A stretch of DNA of 22,878 nucleotides from a virus (lineage: Duplodnaviria > Heunggongvirae > Uroviricota > Caudoviricetes), in the IMG/VR virus record IMGVR_UViG_2574180019_000007. One strand, given 5' to 3'. The translations under genes and the position numbers were made by a program. Positions within the stretch are counted from its first letter, which is position 1. Every line of letters begins with the position of its first letter. Under the pieces are notes generated by a model that had not been told where the DNA came from, did no database searches, and saw only the letters and a program-made list of their open reading frames with translations. Of the stretch, positions 22,020 through 22,878 are shown piece after piece.

Positions 22020-22378
22020 TCATTCCCCATTTCGGTGATGGTCAGTTCCAGCCTCCCACCTTTGGTAACAGGCATCTTCACAACGCGGTAATCAACGACC
22101 TGAGCATCATCCAGCCAGAAACCTGCTTTAGTGAGTGCGTCAAAAGCGGCTTTTTGCAGATTATCCAGGTCACGGCGACGGCGATCCGGCATGTGGCACT
22201 CAATGCGGATTTTCACAGGCATAGCCAGGCCGATATCCAGCATTGCGTTTTTAATGATTCGGGCGACGTTATCGCGGTATGCCTGCCCCTCTGCGCTGAC
22301 GTGCGTGCGCCCGCGATTATGGCGGTAATAGCGATTATTGCTCGGAGGCCAGGGTAATGTGATGCTGTAGGTATTCAC
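22016..22378 (-). CDS. rusA: Holliday junction resolvase RusA
   Basis: 120-aa [41 protein letters not shown]...[33 protein letters not shown]..., which I recognise as DLP12-type RusA. GTG start overlapping the stop of the upstream remnant. Confidence 0.9.
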
Positions 22379-22503
22379 GCCTTAATAACCCCCTCTTTCA
22401 GCCACATAACCTGTGTTCTCGCCATACCTTCCAGCGCGCATTCTTTTGCATATGCAGCATCGACTTGCTTGGCATGCCCTTTACCGGCAATCTTCTGTAT
22501 GCG
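22375..22503 (-). pseudogene. 5'-truncated remnant of a ybcO-like (nin-region) gene
   Basis: Frame ending at TGA (22375-22377, overlapping the rusA GTG) encodes ...[38 protein letters not shown], resembling the C-terminus of DLP12 YbcO as I remember it. An in-frame TAG at 22504-22506 and no start codon mean the N-terminal part is missing. Confidence 0.4.
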
Positions 22504-22628
22504 CTAAACCTAGATAGAATCCACTCTGTGCACATTGAAGCCCGCTCTATGCTTTCTTTCAGGTATTGAAGGGATTGAGATGGGCTAAGCATTATTGGCC
22601 TCCTGCATCAGGAGAAAGACAATCATGG

Positions 22629-22878
22629 TGAAGTGGTCAACAAAAACTGGCCACCGAGTTAGAGTTTTTTCCAGTATCGATTTTCCGATTCGTTTGGTGG
22701 TAACCCACCATTATATTCGTGCGGTCTTAGTGCGCTGTAATATCCAACGATATAGTCCGTTATTGCGTGAGCTGCATCGCTGAAGCTTACATAGCCCGTC
22801 GCCGGCACCCATTCGTTCTTCAGACTCCTGAAGAAGCGCTCCATTGGGCTGTTATCCCAGCAGTTTCCACGCCGACTC
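22629..22878 (-). mobile_element. Right end of an IS3-family insertion sequence (terminal inverted repeat plus transposase 3' end); element continues past the window
   Basis: Terminal sequence TGAAGTGGTCAACAAAAACTGGCCACC begins at 22629 (TG...CA-type IS3-family end, similar in pattern to the IS911 terminal repeat as I recall it). The transposase ORF ends 30 bp inside the element. Confidence 0.7.
22659..22878 (-). CDS. IS3-family transposase OrfB, C-terminal part (5' end outside window)
   Basis: Minus-strand frame reads ...[72 protein letters not shown]. The CWDN..ERFF..LK block is the conserved DDE-transposase C-terminal motif of IS3-family OrfB. The open frame continues upstream of the track's ATG to the window edge. 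Confidence 0.8.

Follow-up and report, generated by a model that had tools for sequence, protein, structure and literature searches.

What has an insertion sequence done to a prophage when it lies just upstream of rusA, near the broken end of a ybcO-like gene and ahead of the late antiterminator gene? The stretch of DNA analysed here (the window, 22,878 nucleotides) poses this question at its very end, where it stops inside such an element. As a whole, we consider it very probable that a prophage of the Nissle 1917 / ATCC 25922 type carries the right (IRR) end of ISEc52 joined to ninX, and that the seam on the ybcO side is older than this joining.

The window spans the late arm of a lambdoid prophage, one of the type found in Nissle 1917 and ATCC 25922. 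Positions 1-22628 align to ATCC 25922 and to several other genomes at 100.0% identity, and the alignment ends exactly at 22628; in the ATCC 25922 counterpart, where a prophage of the window's type sits between sitABCD and icd, ninX is intact and no IS occupies the site at which the window carries ISEc52. The gene order is gpJ, head, terminase and lysis genes, iss, a porin gene, quuD-ylcG-rusA and the nin region (features of the right end are collected in Table 1), and the full head, tail and lysis gene set is retained. All right-end genes (quuD, ylcG, rusA and the ybcO-like frame) lie on the minus strand, and an Rfam scan of the entire window returned no family at the gathering score. Cargo genes stand on the strand opposite to the phage late genes: iss, for the increased serum survival lipoprotein (18055-18348, plus), and an OmpC/NmpC-like porin gene between quuD and the lysis genes (20139-21221, plus), which is intact in the window whereas its counterpart in K-12 DLP12, nmpC, is broken by IS5. 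The window starts inside the tail-tip gene gpJ (position 2901269 of the ATCC 25922 record, within a gene at 2898583-2902059), a repeated prophage gene, so that both window ends lie in sequence repeated across E. coli genomes; repeats at both ends would fit a short-read contig bounded by them. In strains PE144 and SF-088, for which ISEc52 is listed, the matching span is 1,253 bp longer than 22,628 bp, an excess that fits another ISEc52 plus a 3-bp duplication elsewhere in the late region of the prophage.

Table 1. Features at the right end of the window, and ISEc52 junctions in four sister prophages. The last four lines are given on the ATCC 25922 locus L006, where the junction of the window lies at 4897.
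Feature	Position	Strand or orientation	Evidence or remark
quuD, Q-type late antiterminator, intact	21410-21793	minus	Pfam Phage_antitermQ, E=8e-54; RefSeq annotation
ylcG, intact	21879-22019	minus	RefSeq annotation of identical sequence; ORF list
rusA, Holliday-junction resolvase, intact	22016-22378	minus	Pfam RusA, E=7e-23; RefSeq annotation of identical sequence
ybcO/DUF1364 3' stump, 29 codons and stop	22375-22464	minus	matches to intact ybcO genes; RefSeq pseudogene
Chimeric 64-codon ORF	22398-22592	minus	ORF list; ends 20 bp before the rusA start
Mosaic spacer between ninF fragment and ybcO stump	22465-22529		no homology to K-12 ybcO
ninF 5' fragment	22530-22592	minus	17/22 residues identical to ST64T NinF
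ninX 3' remnant, last 14 codons (MIVFLLMQEANNA) and stop	22585-22628	minus	44/44 nt identical to ninX of ATCC 25922/Nissle 1917
TGG, putative 3-bp target	22626-22628		a duplicate at the other end would follow from a simple insertion
ISEc52 right (IRR) end, final 250 bp of the 1250-bp element	22629-22878	minus	identity to full copies
Terminal inverted repeat IRR	22629-22664		TG tip at 22629-22630; IRL and IRR match at 25/36 positions in a full copy
Transposase orfB 3' end, C-terminal 72 codons and stop	22659-22878	minus	ORF list; stop at 22659-22661
ECC-1470	4917 / IS / 14653	same ISEc52 orientation	no target duplication
JNE170426	5151 / IS / 14658	same ISEc52 orientation	no target duplication
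C 691-04A	6299 / IS / 19765	same ISEc52 orientation	no target duplication
FDAARGOS_1255	9953 / IS / 12088	same ISEc52 orientation	no target duplication

A preliminary description of the window had let it end inside an IS3-family element with a terminal repeat starting at 22629, and this is exact to the base. The last 250 bp are identical (250/250) to full-length ISEc52 copies in ATCC 25922 and other genomes, and in the alignment the terminus at 22629 (TGAAGTGGTCAACAAAAACTGG...) is common to four other ISEc52 copies with unrelated flanks. RefSeq names the identical sequence 'IS3-like element ISEc52 family transposase' in many genomes. ISEc52 is an IS911-like element of the IS3 family, which we take to resemble IS911 directly in sequence. 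Full copies in other genomes measure 1250 bp, have TG...CA tips and imperfect inverted repeats, and hold orfA at IS positions 37-375 (HTH_Tnp_1 match) and orfB at 402-1220 (rve match). The features that define the family are present: TG...CA inverted repeats, a DDE (rve) transposase and, read on the full copies of other genomes only, overlapping orfA/orfB frames with a -1 frameshift motif (the A6G slippery sequence AAAAAAG at IS position 324). In the window itself, the minus-strand fragment 22662-22877 matches the integrase-core families rve_3 (E=4e-10) and rve_2 (E=1e-5), and the full orfB from an identical ISEc52 copy matches rve at E=1e-31. At the level of the element nothing differs from ISEc52/IS911; all that the searched collections do not record is the insertion site (ninX, TGG at 22626-22628). 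From what is known of the family, ISEc52 would move by copy-out/paste-in via a circular intermediate and generate a 3-bp duplication, and its simple insertions do leave such duplications (AAC in OZ040267; ATG and AAT in ATCC 25922). The transposase reads toward lower coordinates, which is the direction of rusA and quuD. Six nucleotides from its tip, the IRR carries an outward-facing TTGACC on the minus strand, and the circle junction of ISEc52 would read TTGACC-17 nt-TTTACT; in IS911, an outward -35 in IRR pairs with a -10 in IRL when the two ends abut (PMC9330008).

As had been noted from the first, the element lies upstream of rusA and separates the rest of the nin region from rusA-ylcG-quuD. 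The gene that it cuts is ninX, 44 bp before its stop codon. The full ninX of Nissle 1917 and ATCC 25922 is 342 bp long (Pfam Phage_P22_NinX, E=7e-17); its identity to the window stops at 22628, and the window side of the IS holds no complete NinX of about 113 codons. Within the ninX 3' end, positions 22600-22614 form a perfect 6-bp stem with a 3-nt loop (CTCCTG CAT CAGGAG), 14 bp from the insertion point and with no T-run after it. The 125 bp between 22504 and 22628, previously left as unexplained, are accounted for by the ninX 3' end, a ninF 5' fragment and spacer. The ninF ATG (22592-22590) overlaps the ninX stop as in P22-like phages, and the DNA of this ninX/ninF junction is 89-93% identical to such phages; a stretch reaching across the spacer (22458-22558) matches, at 88%, an unannotated stretch downstream of ninE in the Stx1 phage AU6Stx1. 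In the DNA separating the IS from rusA we recognise a typical lambdoid recombination seam, at which a P22-like ninE-ninX-ninF module meets a DLP12/phage-82-like ybcO-rusA-ylcG-Q module. An open reading frame runs through this region (22398-22592), of which the first ~22 codons are ninF and the remainder crosses the spacer and the ybcO stump out of frame. It matches no Pfam family and is unannotated in the RefSeq relatives; we rejected it as a by-product of the seam, and it is probably not a gene.

The ybcO-like C-terminal remnant is genuine, with a stop and no start as the preliminary description had it, but by homology it comprises 29 codons and a stop rather than about 37 codons. Matches to genomes with intact ybcO end at query base 90, that is at window position 22464, and the alignment to K-12 ybcO breaks at the same base. 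When 22375-22628 was aligned with intact ybcO, a comparison that had been proposed at the outset, homology was confined to 22375-22464 and no intact ybcO-like gene appeared. The Pfam YbcO profile is covered only over positions 62-92 of 92, at 17.7 bits, under the 29.9-bit cut-off; the minus-strand frame extends back to a TAG at 22504-22506 without a canonical start codon, so that the domain of ~92 residues with a start codon that marks an intact YbcO/DUF1364 gene is not there. RefSeq labels the same 90 bp in IS-free genomes as 'DUF1364 domain-containing protein, incomplete, missing N-terminus'. On its other side, the stop of the stump overlaps the GTG start of rusA.

Had the insertion itself truncated the ybcO-like gene, as first proposed, the 125 bp between the two would be an unexplained by-product. 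The stump and the IS do lie within 165 bp of each other (the homology boundary is 164 bp from the IS tip), and the imagined event exists in a different prophage: in OZ040267 (L004, 6164-7413), a full-length DUF1364/ybcO gene immediately upstream of rusA is interrupted by ISEc52, which a clean AAC duplication flanks. In the window, however, the intervening DNA is the ninX 3' end and a ninF fragment, and the stump with all the sequence up to the IS tip recurs base for base in IS-free prophages. The 254 bp of 22375-22628 are present, with no IS at 22629, in 584 of 5,426 complete E. coli genomes (counted where at least 80% of their length was covered), including Nissle 1917, ATCC 25922, S88, UM146 and the type strain ATCC 11775. 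Sequence 100% identical to 22300-22628 leads straight into an intact ninX, without IS, in Nissle 1917, ATCC 25922 and many B2-type strains; only two records cover at least 80% of 22300-22878, both with different junctions. Nor would it help to regard the IS-free genomes as precise-excision derivatives, since precise excision would leave no stump. Because stump and flank occur without the IS in hundreds of genomes, the IS did not cause the stump, and we give truncation by the insertion next to no probability. Judged by sequence comparison, the stump is an ancestral mosaic junction that predates the IS and not its scar, and stump, spacer and ninF fragment together are one older recombination seam inherited by hundreds of IS-free prophages.

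A different doubt concerns the ninX-IS junction, which might be an assembly artefact produced at a contig end or by a repeat misjoin. The junction is found in none of the collections searched, the window stops inside an IS and starts inside the repeated gene gpJ, and assemblies of ATCC 25922 stocks conflict on the orientation of one ISEc52 copy. Yet it is precisely at the TG tip of the element that the sequence breaks, as in true transposition; real ISEc52 junctions exist in the same gene in other, independent genomes, 20 bp and 254 bp away; and ISEc52 is demonstrably active in this lineage, having been seen to move in Nissle 1917 during laboratory culture (bioRxiv 10.64898/2026.07.28.741313) and differing between ATCC 25922 stocks. 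On the strength of the exact tip and of the neighbouring junctions we rejected an artefact as the main reading and hold it to be very improbable. ATCC 25922 carries two resident ISEc52 copies in its prophage of the window's type, and a 496-bp deletion in sieB, adjacent to the IS, distinguishes some of its stocks from others. Among the ATCC 25922-derived stocks, the sites compared were LTC101 (L005, 11972-13221), JCM 5491 (L013, 8369-9618) and CP117235 (L006, 12438-13687): in CP117235 sieB is intact and ISEc52 is flanked by an AAT duplication, and LTC101 and JCM 5491 both lack 496 bp of sieB. Between LTC101 and JCM 5491 the outer flanks of ISEc52 are identical and its orientation is opposite: the element has either truly flipped in place or been misassembled.

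Taking the ninX-ISEc52 junction as real, we then considered what lies beyond the element, of which the window offers one flank only. The exact 41-mer across 22628/22629 had 0 matches in genome_contigs, metagenome_contigs and viral_contigs, and the exact junction occurs in none of the 5,426 complete E. coli genomes. A simple insertion predicts a partner junction made of the IRL tip, TGG and the continuing ninX sequence (CGGCGCGGAGAGG); this had 0 matches in genome_contigs and metagenome_contigs, a result that carries no information because the source strain is apparently absent from both. Comparison with sister prophages was informative. Four related genomes (ECC-1470, JNE170426, C 691-04A and FDAARGOS_1255; Table 1) share with the window an ISEc52 IRR end that faces nin-rusA-Q, and in contrast to the window both flanks of the IS are visible in them; as these flanks show no target duplication, deletion is proven in these four, and it affects the early region with its immunity and replication genes. 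The IRR junctions of ECC-1470 and JNE170426 lie in the same gene, ninX, 20 bp and 254 bp from that of the window, and C 691-04A and FDAARGOS_1255 have the window's prophage type with flanks 100% identical. ECC-1470 (L003, 6349-7598) and JNE170426 (L002, 5583-6832) are argU/intD-site prophages in which ISEc52 connects ninX with sequence immediately upstream of cIII; the two differ by 5 bp in the IRL flank and by 234 bp in the IRR flank, a pattern suggestive of small nested deletions next to the IS on either side of a single ancestral copy.

Because four related genomes carry ISEc52-bounded deletions, a deletion junction in the window is about as likely as a simple insertion. By analogy with these genomes, ISEc52 may well bound a deletion running from ninX into the immunity/replication region, a reading to which we give slightly better than even chances; a simple ISEc52 insertion flanked by TGG we place a little below even. 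This division is a judgement from four related cases, two of which (ECC-1470 and JNE170426) probably share ancestry. The consequences would differ greatly. If the junction bounds a deletion, the prophage has no PR, N, cI, O or P and is irreversibly defective, and the only transcription of rusA-ylcG-quuD would be a weak read-through that starts at the transposase promoter. If the insertion is simple, only the dispensable ninX is lost and N-antiterminated transcription to Q is probably not stopped. With the IS at the end of the sequence, functional assessment is impossible until the other flank is known.

The proposed effects on Q can nevertheless be set against what the window and its parent prophage contain. 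That the IS reduces or abolishes Q expression finds no support: on the Q-ward (minus) strand, our scan revealed no intrinsic-terminator-like site inside ISEc52 or between ISEc52 and rusA, and the parent prophage encodes an N antiterminator. These statements on transcription come from consensus scans and textbook lambda biology, and Rho-dependent polarity falls outside such scans. In lambda, N-modified polymerase reads through IS polarity; a literature search on the suppression of IS polarity by N returned nothing usable. A simple insertion would probably cost the prophage only ninX, because N-modified polymerase overrides IS polarity and N is encoded. A defect in induction caused by the IS is likewise unsupported. 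The lambdoid 'prophage 3' of Nissle 1917, which is probably an IS-free relative of the window's prophage, has been reported not to be inducible by antibiotics or heat (data not shown there; PMC5987069), so that a defective prophage can be explained without this ISEc52 copy.

The opposite effect had also been suggested, namely that an outward promoter of the IS drives rusA and Q constitutively. In this form the sequence does not bear it out: downstream of the TTGACC in IRR, the flank offers TTTCTC at 17-bp spacing, CTTTCT at 16 and TTCTCC at 18, and the consensus scan reported no hybrid promoter at the IS/flank junction. More broadly, transcription leaving IRR might activate rusA, and perhaps ylcG and quuD, with rus-1/rus-2 in DLP12 as the precedent. 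One of the elements involved there, IS2, is an IS3-family element too. In K-12 DLP12, IS2 and IS10 insertions upstream of rusA activate the silent rusA and suppress ruv mutations (PMC1636454), so that the turning on of a quiescent rusA by an IS is documented. The window resembles rus-1/rus-2 in having an IS not far upstream of rusA within the nin region of a lambdoid prophage, and placement and orientation suit transcription toward rusA: 250 bp separate the tip from the downstream rusA start, transposase and rusA share a strand, the interval is free of terminator-like sites, and the IRR bears the outward TTGACC for which IS911 provides a precedent (PMC9330008). Unlike rus-1/rus-2, the window's prophage keeps its late genes and carries ISEc52, and the consensus scan predicts neither an outward nor a hybrid promoter. 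In IS911-type elements the transposase has a weak native promoter, and a high level of Q would turn on the lysis genes, which are intact, and would be selected against. Weighing these points, we regard activation of rusA by the IS as unlikely.

DLP12, a cryptic prophage decayed by IS elements, is also a close point of comparison for the arrangement as such. It shares with the window the ybcO-rusA-ylcG-quuD-porin-lysis module, and its genes are IS-interrupted as well (IS3 in renD, IS5 in nmpC); in DLP12, however, ybcO is intact and the structural genes are lost, whereas the window has a ybcO stump and the full head, tail and lysis set. The ISEc52 IRR faces nin-rusA-Q at about four independent junctions (the window, ECC-1470/JNE170426, C 691-04A and FDAARGOS_1255). 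It is conceivable, though we think it a long shot, that this orientation is no accident, with deletions selected for the loss of immunity, replication and kil genes and with read-through from the IS keeping rusA and Q transcribed at a low level. If so, the IS would rewire the prophage and not merely inactivate it, and the low rusA/Q transcription could support cargo genes such as iss.

What the window records is ordinary IS-driven prophage decay, in which the IS, the prophage type and the ybcO stump were already known or catalogued. All that is new is a single further ISEc52 junction, located in ninX, and beyond correct annotation it matters little. For annotation, the ybcO stump of this widespread prophage type is an ancestral recombination seam and should not be taken for an IS scar. 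For work on strains of the ATCC 25922/Nissle type, the junction adds to the signs that this prophage is still being remodelled by ISEc52, even from one laboratory stock to another, and in the window's lineage about half of such ISEc52 junctions may mark deletions in which the entire immunity/replication region is lost.
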